This document shows, one piece after another, positions 40,941 through 54,246 of a stretch of 64,000 nt of DNA. Position numbers and translations under genes: made by a program. Every line of letters starts with the position of its first letter. Positions within the stretch are counted from its first letter, which is position 1. Source of the stretch: Lytechinus pictus (lineage: Eukaryota). The stretch is taken from positions 9,054,001-9,118,000 of the forward strand of contig NC_087251.1 in assembly GCF_037042905.1 (NCBI RefSeq). Direction: 5' to 3'. The notes under the pieces are model-generated. The model made no database searches, had not been told where the DNA came from, and saw only the letters and a program-made list of their open reading frames with translations.

Positions 40941-41046
40941 TTAAGTTAAACCCGACTTTAACTTTGACCTGTATTTTCAAATACTTGTGTATTGCAATAA
41001 TTCTGCATGAACCATGTATACCTGAGTTGGAAATATTCCCTCGTGT

Positions 41047-41318
41047 CAGGGGCGGATCCAAGATTTTTCGAAAGGGGGAGGGGGCACATTTTCCCTAGGA
41101 AAGATTTGACAAGCAAAAAAAAGGGGTTAAACAAAAATTAGGGTATTTCGTCCACGAAAAAATATGACAAGCAAAAAAAAAAAACCAAAATCTTCACTTT
41201 CAAAAGGGAGGGGGGCACACTTCTGTTTTTAAGGCATTTTTACATTAAAATTTTTAATTAATCTCAAGGGGGCACGGGCCGCCTAGGCGCGCCTGTGCCC
41301 CTCCTGGGTCCGCCAGTG
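41047..41318. mobile_element. hAT-like MITE about 300 bp upstream of the YY1 start
   Basis: CAGGGGCGGATCC and CACTGGCGGACCC TIRs; 8-bp TSD CCTCGTGT/CCTCATGT. Confidence 0.78.
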
Positions 41319-41502
41319 CCTCATGTTGACATATTTTCATCATATTTTGTTTTGTGTATATACACTGCATCTACATGTGTGTTAACCAGTGAAAAAGAAT
41401 TTCTTTTATGGACAATAAATCCATTCAATTCATTCATTCAATCAAAATAATCGGCCGCAAAACAAAATGTTCTGTATCATCAGACTAGTCACTGCTTTAA
41501 TT

Positions 41503-41526
41503 GTCACGTGACTGAACCTCGCGAGA
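41503..41526. promoter_or_regulatory. YY1 proximal promoter motifs: palindromic E-box GTCACGTGAC and CCTCGCGAGA (BANP/CGCG-type element, 1 mismatch)
   Basis: Motif matches about 90-110 bp upstream of the first ATG, in a CpG-rich patch. Confidence 0.55.
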
Positions 41527-41613
41527 AATCGTGAGATTTCTGTCTACGTCACGACCCCCTGCGATGATGAGACGAACTTGGCTGCCAAAACTGGAAGCAG
41601 AAGAAAATCCAAC

Positions 41614-42175
41614 ATGGACGCCGAAGAAGTTGACATTGAGCTGCCCTATATTACGGCCAAAATGGCGGCTGATCCGGACATTATTAATACTGCAATTGAA
41701 TTACCTGTTCAAGAGGTGGAAATAGAGAGCATACCAATGGAAAATATTGAGGGCATAACGACTGAAAATATAGTTACAATACCAGTACACGGAATAGGAC
41801 AAGTGGAAACGGTGGAATGTGAAACTGTCGATGGAATTGAATGTCAACCCATCTCGATTCACCATTTAACAGATCGTGAAGAAATAGTTCTCCAGACTCG
41901 AGAGGAAATCGTTGGAGATGTTGATGATTTGACAGGTTCTAGTTATATAATTGATGCAGATTCTGTCCCTGTTCCAGTACCAAATTCAGACTTATCTGAC
42001 GAAACATTAGCTGGTCCAAGCAGACGGAAAAAGGGGAAGAAAAATTCGCGAACGAGAGTCTTGGCGAGTGGGGAGTTGTCTTTTGACTCAGAAAAGAACA
42101 CCAGAAAATGGGAACACAAGCAAGTTCAAATCAAAACTCTGGAAGGGGAATTTTCAGTGACGATGTGGGCTTCAG
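41614..42175 (+). CDS. YY1: YY1 exon 1 (acidic N-terminus plus REPO); alternative start ATG at 41662
   Basis: ccaacATGg context; donor gtgggt at 42176. Confidence 0.92.
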
Positions 42176-42498
42176 GTGGGTGATATTTTTCTTCAGAATA
42201 ATTTGCAAAAACGTCAGATTAAACGATCTTTGCATCGCCCTTCCCTCAACGTGCATTCCTCAGCTGCAACTGCAATGCGAATGCCGTAGTGGAATTCTCG
42301 ATCACACACACGCAAAACGAATGAGCGAACGCTTACGCAGAACTCGCACTCTATTTTCCGTTCATCAAAATATCAAAGCGTCTCCATCAACTAAAATGTC
42401 CATTTCAAAGAACATATTTGATATGAATGATCACATGAATAACCAAAGGGTCTAATCGACCCAAAATCTTGAATGTTGGATTTGTTTTGATGTGATTT

Positions 42499-42556
42499 CG
42501 GCCATGTTTTTGTCATGGGCGCAGCCATGTTACAAAATGGCGTTTTCAAAATGGCG
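42499..42556. promoter_or_regulatory. Cluster of four YY1-binding motifs in YY1 intron 1
   Basis: CGGCCATGTT (42499), GCAGCCATGTT (42521), CAAAATGGCG (42533), CAAAATGGCG (42547). Confidence 0.75.
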
Positions 42557-43818
42557 AATTTCGGAGAGGGTTTTTGGAGGGCTACTCGTCAAAAAAACAG
42601 ATTTTGCGTTGGGGATATATCTCATTTATTGACTTGTCGGTAATTATCAAACTCCTTTAATGTTATCTGATTTTTTAAATATCTTATATTAGTGCAGTTT
42701 AAAGCATTTTATCCTTATAACCCTCAAAACTATACATGTTTTCGGTTGTTTCCTTGACCTGCTTGAATTGAGTGCAGAAACTGCACACAGTGTACGCCTA
42801 TGTCGGCGCACTGGGCCCTCGCCCGATCGCCAAGGCGTGGATCGTGTGATTGGGGTGTCATTTCTTTATGCCGTGTCGTGGTTCTTGCACATGCAGTTGC
42901 TCGAGGCTGAGCCATCATGGCCATGGGGCTGGCTTGGTGACGTGACTAGTCTAGGGGTGCCGCAATTTAATTTTCTAGTTTGACATTGTTTCATTTGTCA
43001 ATGTTACCCATTTCTAAAACATTTCAGTTTTCTAATGATTTTTAAAATATATTTTTAGAATATTTCATTGAAAAAGTCAAAGATGATTGATTTTTGTTGT
43101 TTCATTTTAAGTAGCTTTGAGCTTTCTTCCCCGTAATGTTTTTTTTTCCTTTCTTCATCCTGTCTTCTAGTTCTATCCTTGCTTCATGCATTTTTTCATT
43201 CCATCTGTCTTTCTTACTTTCATGTCTTTCTCTGTGTCCATTTATTTTCTTTAAATTTCTTTTATTTATTTTTTCCTTCTGTTTTCTTCTATTTTTTTAA
43301 AACTTTAAATGTATTTCTTTCAATCTTGTTTTCCTTAATTTTCTTTGCTTCTTTCATTTTCACTTCCTCTCTTTTTTCTTTCCTCCCTCTCTTTCCTTCA
43401 TTCTTTCTTCCCTTCACTCTTTCCTACCTCTTAATTGTTCATCGTTTAGACTTTAGTTCATTCTTTCTTTTCTTTTATCCTTTCTGTTTTGCTTTCCCTT
43501 TAATATTCTACATTATCTATTCTTCATTGAATTTCCTTTCTTCAATTCTGTGCTTATATTTATTTTTTTCTTTCTATATTTTTTGCTTGCTTTCTTTCTT
43601 TCTTGCTTTTCTATCAAAGAATGAAAGAAATCTTTTCTTCTTTCCTTCATTCTCTCTTACCTCCTTTCTTTTTTCTTTCTTTTTACTGTCCTTCAGTTTT
43701 TATTTCCTTCTCCCTTCATCGTGGTATATCCCAAAACATTGTTGGTTATGAAAAGTTCATCACTATTTACCACAACACTGCCCGTCTTGCTTTAAACCAA
43801 CTAGAGCTTGGCAAGTTT

Positions 43819-46664
43819 CCGGGGGGGGGGGGGGGGGGGGGCAACTTCCATTGACGAGTGGATACCATACGCGACCATGAGATCTCAAAAAGCACCCTAA
43901 ACACGTATTTTCCATATTCTGAAAATGCACCCCTTAACAAGTATTGGCGTGTGAAACCCTACCCTTAACAAGTATTTGAAACAAAACTCTATTGGCAAGT
44001 ATTCCCAGAATTGAACCCCAAACCAAGTACAGCGATATTTCAATTGCTATGTCACGGACGTCGGTCGTCGGTTTTACCTTTACTGTACATCATTGGGTTT
44101 AGTACAGCCGCGCAAATCGTACTCTAAACACGTATAATGTTGACTCTTGGGGCAAAAAGTACATCCTTTATAAAACATTTTAGTCTTGATTTTTTATACC
44201 CTCGCAAATTTGACCCTAAACCAAGGCTCGACATTAGCGGTGGCCCGGGGCCACCAGAAATTCACCTCGGGCAACCATTATTGATAAAATGTTAAGTTTT
44301 GGTGGCCCGAATCGGGCAACCAATAATTTTCAAAGTAGCGCAATTTTTCTCCCGATTTTGCACGCATTTATCAACTTTCTACAGTTCAAATTGCAACCCA
44401 GTTTGTCATGCGCCCTTTTTGTTGATCTACACACAAATACACACACACAAAGTTTGCATATTAGGCCTACAGCTATAGCATACAGTAGCTATTATCCAGC
44501 CAGCCGCGCCGGCCGGCTGGCATGAGCTTTGCATGAAGCCACTGCATACAGCTGTGCTCTAGATCTAGCTCAGCCTATTCAGACTCCGGGAGCTGCGATT
44601 AAAAATGTTGCTGCTAAGAAATCTTCCACAGAACTTTGAAAATCTGAGTCAAAGTCACATTTTACACCAATGAAATGACATTCTACAGTCTATATTACAA
44701 AAATTTGGTGTACCCTGATTATTTGCAAGCATTAAGAAGAGGAATTATGACCTCTCTTTTGACTACAAAAGACCGATTTCCAAATGAATTAATACACATA
44801 AAAACACATAGGAAAGTACATCACAGTCCCACGTGTGCATTTGTATGTATGTTGATACTTGGTTTCTTTCGAAGCTGTGTCTTTTCTAGCCAAAAATAAA
44901 CAGACAGTTTCTTTCTTTCTTGTTTATAAATGACTTCTTAAGGACGTCATTTTTATTAGAGCAAATGTGCTTTTTAAAACACCAAAAATGCGCCGAATGC
45001 TTAGTATCTATGTGAAGAAAAAATCAAAACTACTCTACCATTTATTCAAACTCGGGGTAATATTCGTGATTCTTGGCAGCACTGCAGAGTAAAGTATTTT
45101 GAAATTGTAGAGAATATTTTTTTGAATGGTCCATTGAATAATTCCATTTTTTTATCTTCATGAAATAACGCATCGGATCTGCAGTTAAAGTGCAGAAGAT
45201 GAGAAAAATCAGCTTATACCCGCAGCTAATTAATCACCTGTTCATCCATTGTGACGTCAGCGCGCAGAGTGTAAACTATGCGCAGATCATAATGCGCACA
45301 AACATAACTGTGGAACGTCCTTAAACCACTCTTGAGAAAGTAAATACTTTGGGAAGGCATTTCATTGATATGAAATGTGAATTTTCCAATATTTTGGCAA
45401 ATATAGGGAAGGACTTTTCTCACCCTTTTTTCCACATATAACTTTTGCCGTTTTCTTCTTATTTTTTTTCTTTCATTTTTTTTTAGTGGTTAAACCATTT
45501 ATACCCCTTCCCATTGAATATGTCTGATTAAAAAATATGTTTCTACTGAAAATAAAATAATACAAACTAAAGGATATAAAAATAGAAATGTGCCATTCCC
45601 AGAAGATAAGTGAAAATTATTTGCTTGGCTTTTAATTATATTCCAGTCAGAATAGACTGTTGCCACAGCTGTTAAAAATATTTGTAATGGCTTCTTAATT
45701 TTCCCCTTTTCCCCATGTTTATATTAATTTTGTTTTATTCATTTTTCTTTCACTTTCTTTTCTTTTTTTTTTCTCTATAAATTTTTTCTTTTCTTTTTTC
45801 CCTGTTCTTTGTTTTTTCTTTCTTCATTTTCTTTCTTTTGTTTCATTTCACTTATTTCTTATTATTTTTGTTTATTTTTGTTTTCTTTTTGTAATATACC
45901 GGGTACTTTTTGAATATTATTTTCATTTGTTTCCCCCTTTTATGCATTGTTCTAATTTTGCAGCATACTTTTCTGTGATTTTCTCCTGCTATAATATGCT
46001 GCAAAAGAGAAAACAGAAATAAACTGGATTTGGGGCCTGCATAATCTAGGTTTTAGGATTAAAAGAGGAAGAAATGAAAAACCATTGTTTTGTACATCTA
46101 TCTGAGTTTGCTATGCACTATTTATTTACTTTACCATTATGAGTGTGTGTCTATACGGAGATTTAAAAAAAAAGTCCACACAACCTGCGAACAATAAAAT
46201 TCATTTATTCTCTTTCAATCATTTCATTTTTACAATGATAGAAACAATTTATATTTTACCACAAGCCAATTAGCAAAGTAAAATAACAGCAAACAAGGTT
46301 TACATACAAGATGATAAAGTGAAAGTAAATTAGTGGTAGTGGCTGCAGAATTAATATTTCAGAAGTTAGTTTTATTAATTTTTAATGTGTTTCTTTATAT
46401 TTTTCGGGCCACCAAAAAAAATTATTTGATGGTTTTGGTGGCCCGAACGGGCCACCACCAAAAAAAGTTAATGTGGAGCCCTGCCTAAACACGTAGCTTT
46501 CCTATCGAAAATAGATACCCTTTTTTCATTATTTTTTTTTCAGTGTTTTTGACACCCTTATTACGTTACGTATGTACTGTGCCCTATCTTGAAAAAGACA
46601 TCCTTTTTATGTGTTTTTTTGGTCACGCATGGTATCCACTCGTCAATGTAAGCGGCCCCCCCGG
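43819..46664. mobile_element. Same TIR family as 11632-12201 in opposite orientation, interrupted by a 2.26-kb insertion
   Basis: CCGGGG...CCCCGG ends; GCAAGTTT target duplication (43811-43818, 46665-46672). Confidence 0.85.
44222..46483. mobile_element. 2.26-kb non-coding TIR element with 7-bp TSD, nested in the previous element
   Basis: TIRs CAAGGCTCGACATTA and CAGGGCTCCACATTA; CCTAAAC duplicated; subterminal GGTGGCCCG repeats. Confidence 0.85.
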
Positions 46665-47195
46665 GCAAGTTTGTACCCAAGCCTGCTTTTCATGGACAAG
46701 CACTGATGAAGAAACTTACAGAAAGCCTTTTTTTCCTCCCTCCCTACATGTACATGTACTTTCACAGAACTGCAGCTCATAATAAACTTGCATGTACATG
46801 TACGTGTACATACATACAAATTAATTTTGATTAAACTTTAGACTCAGCGATATTTTGCGGGCAAAATTCAACTAACATTGATTGATATACAAATACATGT
46901 AATTCACAATTTATAAATGTGTTGTGTAGGCCTAGTGTTACGTGATTCAGCACATTCAAGGATATTTGAAATTTGCGAAAGCACAAGGTGTTTTTGTTAT
47001 TGTGAATACATACATTTTTGTACATCTACCCGAATTACCCGCATTGTCAACATCACAAACTTTTTTGTATAATTAAGTTTTTATTGATAAAATAATTATA
47101 CAACAACAATCAAGAAAACAATTACATTGAATATCACACATACATGTAGCATTACAATATAAACAAAAATTGAATAAAAAAGAAAATAAAATGTA

Positions 47196-48904
47196 ACTAG
47201 AATTTTAATTCGTCATGAGGACGAATTAGGTGATCTGTCTCTGATTTCATGATCAGGAAGACAATCAGCATGCTTATTGAGATCAATATGATCATCATGA
47301 TGAGAACTGAACTTCTCTTACAAAAAGAACGTGTTGGATACTCTTGAAAAAGAGGGAAATGAAAAAGTTGTGTGAAAAAGTGTAGGTCATACACATACCG
47401 GTATTGTACAGGAACATTGTACATTAAAAGGGATTTTAATCTCTTTTATTGTCCAATGTTTTATTTAATATACATTGTAATGGTCATAAAGGACCATTTG
47501 TGAAATGTTGAAAAGAAAAAAAAAAGAAAAAAAAATTCTCCTGTTCACCCCGGCCTCCTGGGCTCGAACCCTGGACCCTGAGGACGCAAGGCTCATGCCT
47601 TACCCATTGAGCTACACACTTGCCATAGACTTACACATAAGCAAAACAAGAGGATCTCAAATCCAATTTTGCAAGTGAAATACGGGCATGATCCCGGCAT
47701 CTGATCGGAAAATGGAGACCACATTTGCGATAGCTTACAATCTCAGCTACAACATACTTCAAGCTCAGAGAAAACCGACAAAAAAAATGGAGATATGGCT
47801 CGCGAAATAGAGGAATGTAAAATCCAGTTTTGAGAAAAAGTCATTTCCAATAGAGATTGCACACAAAATGAGCGAAAATGACATACCCCTATAAATCAAC
47901 ATTTTCAGGGATAATCCGTGCCTTAAAATGTAAAAATGCCAACTCATTAGATAGAGTGAGTCCTCCGCTACAATATATAGGAAACTGAGCGAAAATTGAC
48001 CATATTTATGGAGTTAGAGTCAAATTTGCATAATTATGATGACGTCATACATGTACATGTAAGTAGCAAAATGGGAATTTTGAGTTCCGACGCCATTTTG
48101 ATGACGTCATGATAAAATTTCGGGTCAAATGTGACATGAAATCATATCTCCCATCCATACTCTATTCGAATTTGAAAAAAAATTGGGGGTCAACGGACTA
48201 CCTGGAGAGCTATAATGAGTTTTGTATAGTCATGTTTTTGCACATATATTGTCTATGGTTAGTGCGCGCGCGCGTGCGTGCTGTAAACTTTGATGGAGGC
48301 CAATTCCGATATTACTTGTCGTACATGTAGAAGGTTGATCAAGGTATCAAATTACTCAGAATTATATAATCAATGCATTGATATTTTAAAAAATGCTGAT
48401 CCTATGTTGTATAGTGCCGTTACGCGCGAGAACGCGCGCGTAACCGTGCGTTCGCGCAAATTTTTTAAATGCTTAAAATGACCTGATTCGTACTCTGGTC
48501 AAAAAGTGATTTTGAGCATTTTAAAATTTTGACGCGCGCGTACGCGCACGTCGTGACCTTTACATGACCTTTGATGACATGGACAGTTGACCCTTGACCT
48601 GAAGTTAATGTGATGTAAATATTGTTAATTTTTAAAATTGATAATGAAGATATGATTGATAATGTGATTTTACAAAATGGCGTCTAGATGACGTCATGAT
48701 GACCTTTTGACCTTGAACTTGTTTTATACACATCACATGATAAGTCATGATATCTGATGATATTCTGAAGATAATTGATGATGTAGATTTGGAGATTTTG
48801 TGCTAACAAGAAAAGGGCGGAAAATAAAGAAAAATAATAAATAAATAAACAAGAAAATTCGTACGAAATTAAGAGTTGATCTGTTGATTGACAGATCACC
48901 TAAT
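47196..48904 (-). mobile_element. Non-autonomous Helitron2/Helentron-type element in YY1 intron 1
   Basis: Minus strand: 5' TTAGGTGATCTGTC with hairpin partner; 3' GACAGATCACCTAA, then hairpin AATTCGTC-ctcat-GACGAATT, then CTAG and TT. Confidence 0.75.
47548..47619 (-). pseudogene. tRNA-derived sequence (pseudo-tRNA or SINE head)
   Basis: Minus strand GTGTGTAGCTCAATGGGTAAGGCA...CCAGGGTTCGAGCCCAGG with A and B boxes; acceptor stem does not pair. Confidence 0.6.
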
Positions 48905-49059
48905 AAAGGCACGATATGAATTTCATCACATAGAGATTAATAAAGATAAATATGAACATTTTCAGCAAATTTCAGCTCAAATCTCCTTTTGTGGAAATGA
49001 AGAGTTAGTTTACCTTGCTTTTTGGCTATCCTACATGTATATACTCTGTTTCTAGATTT

Positions 49060-49932
49060 TAAAAGCTTGGTAGGTGGGAGAGTTATTTTGGAATTGACAA
49101 ATATAAATAAAATATTTCAGTAAAAGAAAAATATAACTTATAAGTCACTACAAATCTATCGTCCTTATATCCAAACATTCTTTCAAAGGGTGTAAATTTG
49201 ATGTTATTATGCATTTTCATATTTATAGATTTTATCACTTCCAAAGAGGTTGAATGTGGGTGCATTTCATAAACAAATGTAAAAATGTTTCTTGTTTGCT
49301 TTTACAAAAATCGCAATTTGGAGAGTCCTTTCTTTTAATCTTGTATAAAAAGAAATTAAGGGCAATTGCTCTATGAAAGAATTTAAAATAAAAAGAACGA
49401 AAACGTGTATTGATCGAACATTTAAAAATTTTCAGATGAATTTCTTTCCAATTCAAAGGTACATCTTTACAGAGAGCATTCCAGTATGATAAGGAATTTT
49501 CAGGAATACAGTCCTCCAACATGGTATTATACACATATTTAGGAACTTGGATGTTTGCATAAGTTTGGATTTGGTCCTACATGCATCAAAACTATCATGC
49601 TTGTTGAAATCAGAGCTAGAAATCCAGCCTTCTGGAATATTTTTCATGAAAAAAATTATATTTCCTCCTGTGTGTAAATTAACACCATAATCGAAAACAA
49701 TGTCTTCAAATAATTTACTGCCTGGAATAGGAGGATCAAGTAAATTGTTGATATACATGTAAATCAAATCTTTATCCAGCCAGTCTTCATATAAAAAGTA
49801 TTGTTTTGATTTGGATCTAATATTCCTGTTAAACCATAAGCATTGACATGAGCCAATTTCAAAATATTTGACACCAAATTCGTCCTTGAATGTCAACATC
49901 AAAAACTTAGAAATGTGCATGTTTTTATTCAA
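49060..49932 (-). mobile_element. L1/Tx1-type LINE ORF2 C-terminal fragment
   Basis: LWFNRNI...W.DK..IY..INNLL; FRSFYFKFFHRAI...SPNCDFCK...ETFLHLFMKC (CCHC knuckle); frameshifted. Confidence 0.8.
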
Positions 49933-50492
49933 CGGGTCGGAAGGATGAATTTGTAGTGGAAACGTTTGATTTCCACCAAATTTTCGAGGGATTGCATGAA
50001 GAGATCACACCCATACCTACTTTTTGTTATGACATCACAGGCATATCTAGTACTGGTATGTGCAGCATCAATAGACTTCTTTGAGAGAACACATATTTCA
50101 GATGGTCTCTTTAATAGTATACATGCTAAAAATGATGCACAAAAAAGGGAACAACGCTGCATAAAAATGTACGGATGGGAGGTTTTGTAGAATTAAAGCA
50201 TGAACACACGATTTGTATATTGCTACATCCTGTAACCAGTTTTATCAAACCAAATATCGACCAGCAACATCCTCTATATTTGTTTGGTTTATGTTTGTTC
50301 TTCATTTTAAACTTATTGAGGACACTGAGGGATAAGCTTATATGTGTACATGTACTTCTGAGGGTGGTTTATCATTGAGGAATATAATGGAATGACTGAA
50401 CTTTGTTAAATTTCCATTTATTACATGTATGATGTACAATCCTTTAAAAAATGAGGTGAGAAGTCTAACTGAAATGAATTTGATTTTGTTGA

Positions 50493-50717
<225 letters not shown>

Positions 50718-52734: not shown

Positions 52735-52795
52735 GATTAAACCAAAGAAGCCAAAAGATGATGATGTACCAAGAACAATAGCTTGTCCTCACAAG
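52735..52795 (+). CDS. YY1: YY1 exon 3 (IKPKKPKDDDVPRTIACPHK)
   Basis: Not in the ORF track; gaag acceptor, gtaagt donor; matches YY1 PRTIACPHK. Confidence 0.95.

Positions 52796-53310: not shown

Positions 53311-53763
<453 letters not shown>

Positions 53764-53970: not shown

Positions 53971-54246
<276 letters not shown>

Follow-up and report, generated by a model that had tools for sequence, protein, structure and literature searches.

The window, i.e., the whole stretch of 64,000 nucleotides from Lytechinus pictus which was analysed here, contains a YY1 gene with five exons on the plus strand, as judged by splice sites and reading frame. Its first intron holds a compact cluster of YY1-consensus sites, which is the subject of this report. 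The relevant parts of the gene are:

41614..42175, plus strand: coding exon 1 of YY1, with the acidic N-terminus and the REPO segment's first half, 93% identity to S. purpuratus YY1
41658..41669, minus strand: fifth YY1-consensus site, GCCGCCATTTTG, overlapping the second in-frame ATG at 41662
42176..50496, plus strand: intron 1 (phase 1, after ...WAS-G), with GT/AG ends and the frame leading into exon 2
50497..50695, plus strand: exon 2
52736..52795, plus strand: exon 3 (start approximate by one base)
53419..53577, plus strand: exon 4, zinc fingers 1-2, 53 of 53 residues the same as in other YY1 proteins
54037..54246, plus strand: exon 5, zinc fingers 3-4 and stop codon, 56 of 56 residues matching the chain of PDB 1UBD

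The exon 1 protein showed 93% identity over 99% of the query to YY1 of Strongylocentrotus purpuratus and 88% to that of Diadema; in an exon-1 tree the window sequence was grouped with both and was sister to the S. purpuratus protein. All 53 residues of exon 4 are identical in YY1 of frog, shark, amphioxus, termite, ant and thrips, and all 56 residues of zinc fingers 3-4 are identical in the YY1 zinc-finger chain of PDB 1UBD. Since the zinc fingers are identical to those of vertebrate YY1, the same DNA-binding specificity would be expected for the window protein. A contig of run X1 (41584-42175) ends exactly at 42175 and stranded RNA reads of run X22 stop at the same base, which is followed by a GT donor; the start of intron 1 is thus fixed at 42176, and the element described below is intronic by these read and contig ends.

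Exon 1 has two in-frame ATGs, at 41614 and 41662. Urchin YY1 proteins are annotated from the first one, and RNA coverage sets in no more than about 30-80 bp upstream of it; the start methionine of starfish, brittle star, hemichordate, amphioxus, mollusc and frog YY1 matches the second. An in-frame AAnATGGC at the presumed start methionine recurs in many other YY1 loci, and this recurrence of a YY1-consensus site may partly reflect start-codon context. A convergent pair of such sites, about 15 bp apart, was seen around the presumed start codon in four of the loci surveyed below (L005, L009, L012, L040; bivalve, thrips, ant, termite). The region 41503-41555, just 5' of the RNA start, is promoter-like, with a palindromic GTCACGTGAC (41503), CTCGCGAGA (about 41519) and TACGTCACG (about 41546), which we take to resemble the E-box, TCTCGCGAGA-type and CRE motifs of housekeeping promoters.

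Within intron 1 the following features were delimited:

42481..42559, plus strand: whole conserved non-coding element, best match of a protostome-only profile (blastn matches span 42471-42559)
42481..42490, plus strand: TTTGTTTTGA box, which is no YY1 site and lies 43 bp upstream of site 2
42501..42508, plus strand: YY1 site 1, GCCATGTT, with CCAT invariant in 12 of 12 aligned segments
42517..42531, plus strand: GGGCGCA extension and YY1 site 2, GCCATGTT (42524-42531), the best conserved block
42533..42542, minus strand: YY1 site 3, CAAAATGGCG (minus strand CGCCATTTTG)
42547..42556, minus strand: YY1 site 4, CAAAATGGCG (minus strand CGCCATTTTG)
42911..42927, no strand assigned: three weak GCCAT cores lacking the nTT flank, with no profile or blastn match there

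The four GCCATnTT-type sites span 42501-42556 (56 bp) in the orientation >><<, i.e., sites 1 and 2 point one way and sites 3 and 4 the other. The full CGCCATnTT is matched by sites 3 and 4 only, site 1 being GGCCATGTT and site 2 AGCCATGTT. A preliminary description of this DNA had reported four YY1 motifs, two per orientation, about 320 bp into intron 1; the motifs lie where it placed them (positions 42501, 42524, 42533 and 42547), and the distance from the donor at 42175/42176 was measured as about 325 bp. Its interval, 42499-42556, covers the four sites and misses the upstream portion of the conserved element, which begins at 42481. Of the extra cores that it had noted near 42909-42928, three GCCAT are indeed there, none of them with an nTT flank. 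In the window these weak cores are followed by GGTGACGTGAC (42911-42947). The bivalve loci L005 and L052 contain CAAGATGGCGG about 550-590 bp past the REPO match and GGTCACGTGA about 20 bp further on, and L017 also has a downstream CAAGATGGCGG; together with the cores of the window, these are possibly a second, weaker module.

Other parts of the region are rich in repeats. High-copy repeats at 41030-41480 and 43000-43760 flank the promoter and the cluster, with very high contig depth at 41200-41480, and a T/C-rich tract of low complexity is found at about 43130-43700. In a CpG-rich block further into intron 1 (48030-48710; observed/expected ratio up to 1.7), GATGACGTCAT palindromes recur along with CGCG runs, and two CGCCATTTTG motifs stand in opposite orientation, at 48091 and 48673; the block is probably a repeat or a transposon remnant. 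On the minus strand, 49235-50004 contains broken open reading frames with a Cys-rich 'CDFC...ETFLHLFMKC' stretch, which presumably resembles the 3' end of a LINE-type retroelement.

The cluster could be an accident of base composition or a piece of a dispersed repeat, and AAAATGGCG is in fact somewhat enriched in the window (7 copies versus 1.3 expected), two copies flanking the CpG-rich block at 48091-48682. However, with 19 GCCATnTT/AAnATGGC sites in the 64 kb, four sites within 58 bp were reached in none of 200 Markov-1 simulations, whose largest cluster was 2, nor in any of 100,000 random placements of the 19 sites. In two DNA-type runs of a relative, organism B, the cluster is spanned by one contig each, at a depth equal to that of exon 1 (65.7 versus 65.7, and 41.5 versus 41.1), whereas the neighbouring repeats at 41200-41480 are many-fold deeper, and a profile search found no second copy of the element within the 64 kb window. 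The cluster is single-copy, the genome-wide copy number resting on contig depth. Membership of a dispersed repeat, which the preliminary description had named as an outcome that would speak against its reading, is contradicted by this depth and by the uniqueness in the window, and we assign a negligible probability to either origin.

Substitutions in organism B are consistent with constraint. A contig of run X11 (42229-42791) differs from the window by 26 substitutions, 24 of which are listed: five in 42229-42436 (208 bp), one in 42437-42568 and 18 in 42569-42791. The lone change in the middle segment is at position 42546, a spacer base. This is modest evidence, the quiet zone being wider than the cluster and two of the 26 changes being unlisted.

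An intron-1 cluster of YY1 sites was described by Kim, Yu and Kim in 2009 (PMC2743690), who aligned it from purple sea urchin, amphioxus, sea squirt and vertebrates. In their alignment it occupies less than 100 bp, and the sites after the second run opposite to the first two; the invertebrate clusters comprise 70 bp in the purple sea urchin, four sites in amphioxus and three in the sea squirt (PMC2743690). Occupancy by YY1 was demonstrated for the vertebrate cluster by ChIP in mouse brain, and the activity of the zebrafish promoter, tested with reporters in mouse cells, was lost upon any change in the affinity, number or orientation of the sites (PMC2743690). YY1 dosage affected transcription inversely via the cluster, excess YY1 lowering it in a Tet-On system (PMC2743690). 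Since no such region was found in Drosophila pho, the element was dated to a time when vertebrates and invertebrates had already separated (PMC2743690).

The cluster of the window corresponds to the one of 2009 in gene, intron, length of less than 100 bp and orientation of the sites, and the earlier assignment of host gene (YY1), intron (the orthologous intron 1) and cluster (ortholog of the vertebrate autoregulatory cluster) is upheld. Its occurrence in a sea urchin is therefore a repeat of the 2009 result and ordinary. Several points differ, as far as the accessible text of the 2009 paper goes: four sites are present in the window and five are implied for the purple urchin, and the TTTGTTTTGA box and the GGGC extension, which were seen here, do not appear in that text, where the spacers are called not conserved (PMC2743690). 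Moreover, this type of element was found here in insects and lophotrochozoans, in contrast to the later origin argued in 2009.

For the survey of further loci, metagenome contigs were scanned for the conserved exon-1 peptide, which yielded 59 loci; in 26 of these, mostly mRNA-like, that exon is not directly followed by an intron, and 33 were genomic, with an intron. A similar element was present in intron 1 of 16 of the 33 genomic loci, about 190-440 bp past the REPO match, and all 16 copies lie on the strand of the gene, in the intron after the REPO exon. The protostome loci come from metagenome contigs without annotation, and protein similarity was the sole basis for placing them. The element-bearing loci are:

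termite, four loci (97% to Cryptotermes)
attine ant, three loci (99% to Cyphomyrmex)
thrips, one locus (89% to Megalurothrips)
Mya-like bivalves, two (91% and 97%)
lophotrochozoan-like, L024 and L035 (weakly placed near an annelid)
fish, one locus, L032 (100% over 41 residues to a cichlid)
taxon uncertain, L007, L017 and L041

The tree of the loci was a quick version from which Tubulanus was dropped, and L007 and L041 formed long branches and are unplaced. The common order of the blocks is TTTGTTTTGA, GCCAT, GGGCGC(A/C)GCCAT(A/G)TT, ATGGC, ATGGCG; several protostome loci have a fifth forward site, which is absent from the window. The sole vertebrate locus, the fish L032, aligns with the window element in the common box, site 1 and the GGGCGC-site 2 block.

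No element was found in the remaining 17 of the 33 genomic loci. In 15 of them exon 2 follows within 500 bp (L002, L006, L008, L013, L015, L018, L020, L022, L025, L028, L029, L038, L047, L053 and L057); the best protein matches of all 15 are low. The absence in all short-intron loci suggests that the element was lost along with compaction of the intron. The other two, L034 and L049, are copies of one ascidian locus, in which no cluster was found in the first 2.5 kb of intron 1, in contrast to the sea squirt with three sites (PMC2743690). They had been considered as a non-bilaterian outgroup, which was rejected, both being ascidian. A similarity of 177 bp between termite and bivalve further into the locus was likewise rejected as a second conserved element, as it is exon 2; it also shows that intron length was overestimated for some element-bearing loci.

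Homology of the elements was assessed with profiles in several directions. A profile from eight protostome-type segments matched 42481-42559 of the window with E = 7.4e-10, the next match in the 64 kb having E = 0.13. Profiles from three insects only and from four lophotrochozoans only also retrieved the window element (E = 5.5e-9 and 5e-7, respectively). Conversely, a window-plus-fish profile, searched against 172 kb, matched L017, both bivalves, L024, the thrips, the four termite loci and L035 at E < 0.01; in the same search the ants reached E = 0.74 only, and L007 and L041 gave no significant match. The training segments of the profiles had been picked by eye; therefore, a motif-blind blastn search was run as well. 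With 1.5 kb of the window intron as query, the six best matches were all this element, e.g., L017 with 85% identity over 65 bp, L024 with 73% over 74 bp and the four termite loci with 69% over 91 bp (E = 6e-5), and reversed-sequence controls gave E values of 1.8 or worse. There is, then, noncoding similarity between deuterostome and protostome loci, together with conserved position and orientation at an orthologous gene.

Such clusters might also have arisen independently in intron 1 of several phyla, if autoregulation had been selected repeatedly. The spacers are poorly alignable and the number of sites varies, as the fifth forward site of several protostome loci illustrates; an nhmmer profile in which the 11-bp YY1 footprints were masked produced no match at E <= 10, little unmasked sequence being left. 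On the other hand, the elements have in common not only the intron, a similar distance from the donor and the order and orientation of the sites, but also two features which are not YY1 sites, at near-fixed distances. TTTGTTTT stands 43-47 bp before site 2 in eight of 12 aligned segments, and GGGCGC(A/C)GCCAT(A/G)TT is present in nine of the 12, with one mismatch in the ant; the spacing between sites 1 and 2 is mostly 22-27 bp. Among 460 GCCAT cores in the window and the loci, GGGC at -7..-4 accompanies 12 and the upstream box 13, which is as many as there are element copies with the respective feature. A YY1-free pattern of box plus GGGC, defined after the alignment had been seen, had 13 matches, all of them elements, versus 0.03 expected per 64 kb. 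Among synthetic clusters of four sites, one in 1000 with random orientation and none in 1000 with the same orientation attained the real score. As to the question of a mere repetition of motifs, the synthetic clusters and the counts of box and GGGC point one way and the empty masked-core profile the other. Because the TTTGTTTTGA box and the GGGC before site 2 are common to the elements at near-fixed spacing, common ancestry would be favoured over convergence, which we consider very unlikely. The earlier proposal that the design predates vertebrates or evolved convergently is supported in its first half; it is not new in view of the 2009 alignment (PMC2743690), and the origin looks bilaterian rather than deuterostome.

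A conserved unit of this kind could act as RNA, the GCCAT and ATGGC motifs forming a hairpin in the pre-mRNA which affects splicing or pausing. The convergent sites are self-complementary and a 5-bp stem was predicted, but the consensus energy is -3.9 kcal/mol with a covariation term of 0.03, and compensatory changes were seen in none of five pairs. Comparison with Rfam gave no credible match, a single sub-threshold match to a bacterial sRNA lying within the exon. A structural RNA was rejected for the element, and a role at the RNA level appears highly improbable.

More weight is due to the notion that the element is ancient and bound by YY1, yet works in invertebrates as a constitutive activator, a chromatin-opening element or an alternative promoter without negative feedback. 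Each site was needed for activation in the experiments of 2009, which left a promoter or epigenetic role open (PMC2743690), and the gene start is surrounded by a CpG-retaining zone (about 41250-43000), within which the element lies. In an intron otherwise almost uncovered, about five sense RNA reads of run X22 begin near 42548, at YY1 site 4. However, these reads, at about 42548-42640, have the same ends by depth, and no start site is listed for them; they could all derive from a single molecule or mark a rare start within the intron. Feedback via the orthologous zebrafish cluster has been demonstrated (PMC2743690), and activity without feedback would appear rather unlikely.

Thus, the element of the window is, with a probability of about 0.78, the sea-urchin ortholog of the YY1 intron-1 autoregulatory element, promoter-proximal, about 80 bp long and inherited from the ancestor of protostomes and deuterostomes. 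Autoregulation, which was demonstrated for vertebrates only, would follow for the window animal from orthology. It also seems probable, judging from the sequence comparisons, that this represents an unreported pan-bilaterian cis-regulatory element serving one autoregulatory circuit, with fixed order, orientation and spacing and with a previously unrecognised box for a partner factor; from the bilaterian ancestor it would have been retained by urchins, fish, bivalves, annelid-like worms, termites, thrips and ants, and flies and lineages whose first intron is compact would have lost it. Conservation into insects and molluscs appears to be unreported and is well supported, on unannotated contigs. 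No report of the element in a protostome was found in the literature within reach, i.e., outside subscription journals and bioRxiv supplements. A 2025 review, in its accessible part, supports YY1 autoregulation by citation of Kim 2009 only.

In the window animal, YY1 would occupy the cluster as two convergent pairs of sites; the bound element would activate transcription at a normal level of YY1, and abundant YY1 would damp its own transcription via the element. The near-fixed spacing and the conserved TTTGTTTTGA and GGGC bases may reflect a stereospecific complex in which YY1 is joined by one partner factor or more. At the T-rich box this might be a forkhead- or HMG-type protein, which is a guess from the motifs of such proteins. 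An ordered complex with a partner would explain why the reporters of 2009 lost their activity upon any reorientation.

Only a few dozen regulatory segments are known which can be aligned between protostomes and deuterostomes; for those on record, the targets are developmental genes. If the reading is true, a dosage-control element of a general transcription factor would be added to them, and the published inference of an origin on the deuterostome or vertebrate side would be overturned. By means of the two conserved non-YY1 features one could test directly how a single cluster changes between activation and repression, and autoregulation of YY1/pho would become testable in insects other than Drosophila.

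Among known systems, the exon-1 site at 41658-41669 is TISU-like, since it overlaps an ATG close to the transcript start; the intron cluster is not concerned. TISU is a transcriptional as well as a translational element with a consensus of its own, which is bound by YY1. The YY1 cluster of Peg3, as described in the accessible text, likewise consists of multiple YY1 sites in a first intron; it differs in being mammalian, with at least 10 sites in the mouse, in number and spacing that are not conserved, and in regulating another gene (PMC2665242). The element also resembles the Bicores (PMC3410860) and a set of regulatory segments, 25 in number, which Frith and Ni described for bilaterians (PMC10735318). 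YY1 as a named locus is absent from the accessible text of Clarke et al. 2012 (PMC3410860) and from the accessible main text of Frith and Ni 2023, where the one mention in the accessible supplement is a motif label (PMC10735318); in a further study (PMC13317027) the accessible main text contains no YY1 and the supplement lists it as an orthogroup row, and the coordinate tables could hold the element unnamed. According to the parts of these papers at hand, the Bicores and the Frith-Ni segments are, like the window element, about 100 bp long, made of short factor-binding blocks in fixed order and orientation, syntenic with an orthologous gene and about 65-70% identical between protostomes and deuterostomes. 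The two Bicores of Clarke et al. were not found in insects, in the text accessible (PMC3410860), whereas the window element is present there. Finally, those segments control developmental regulators, as far as the same accessible sources describe them, whereas the window element lies in a gene described as ubiquitously expressed and, unlike them, is built from sites for the product of its own gene.
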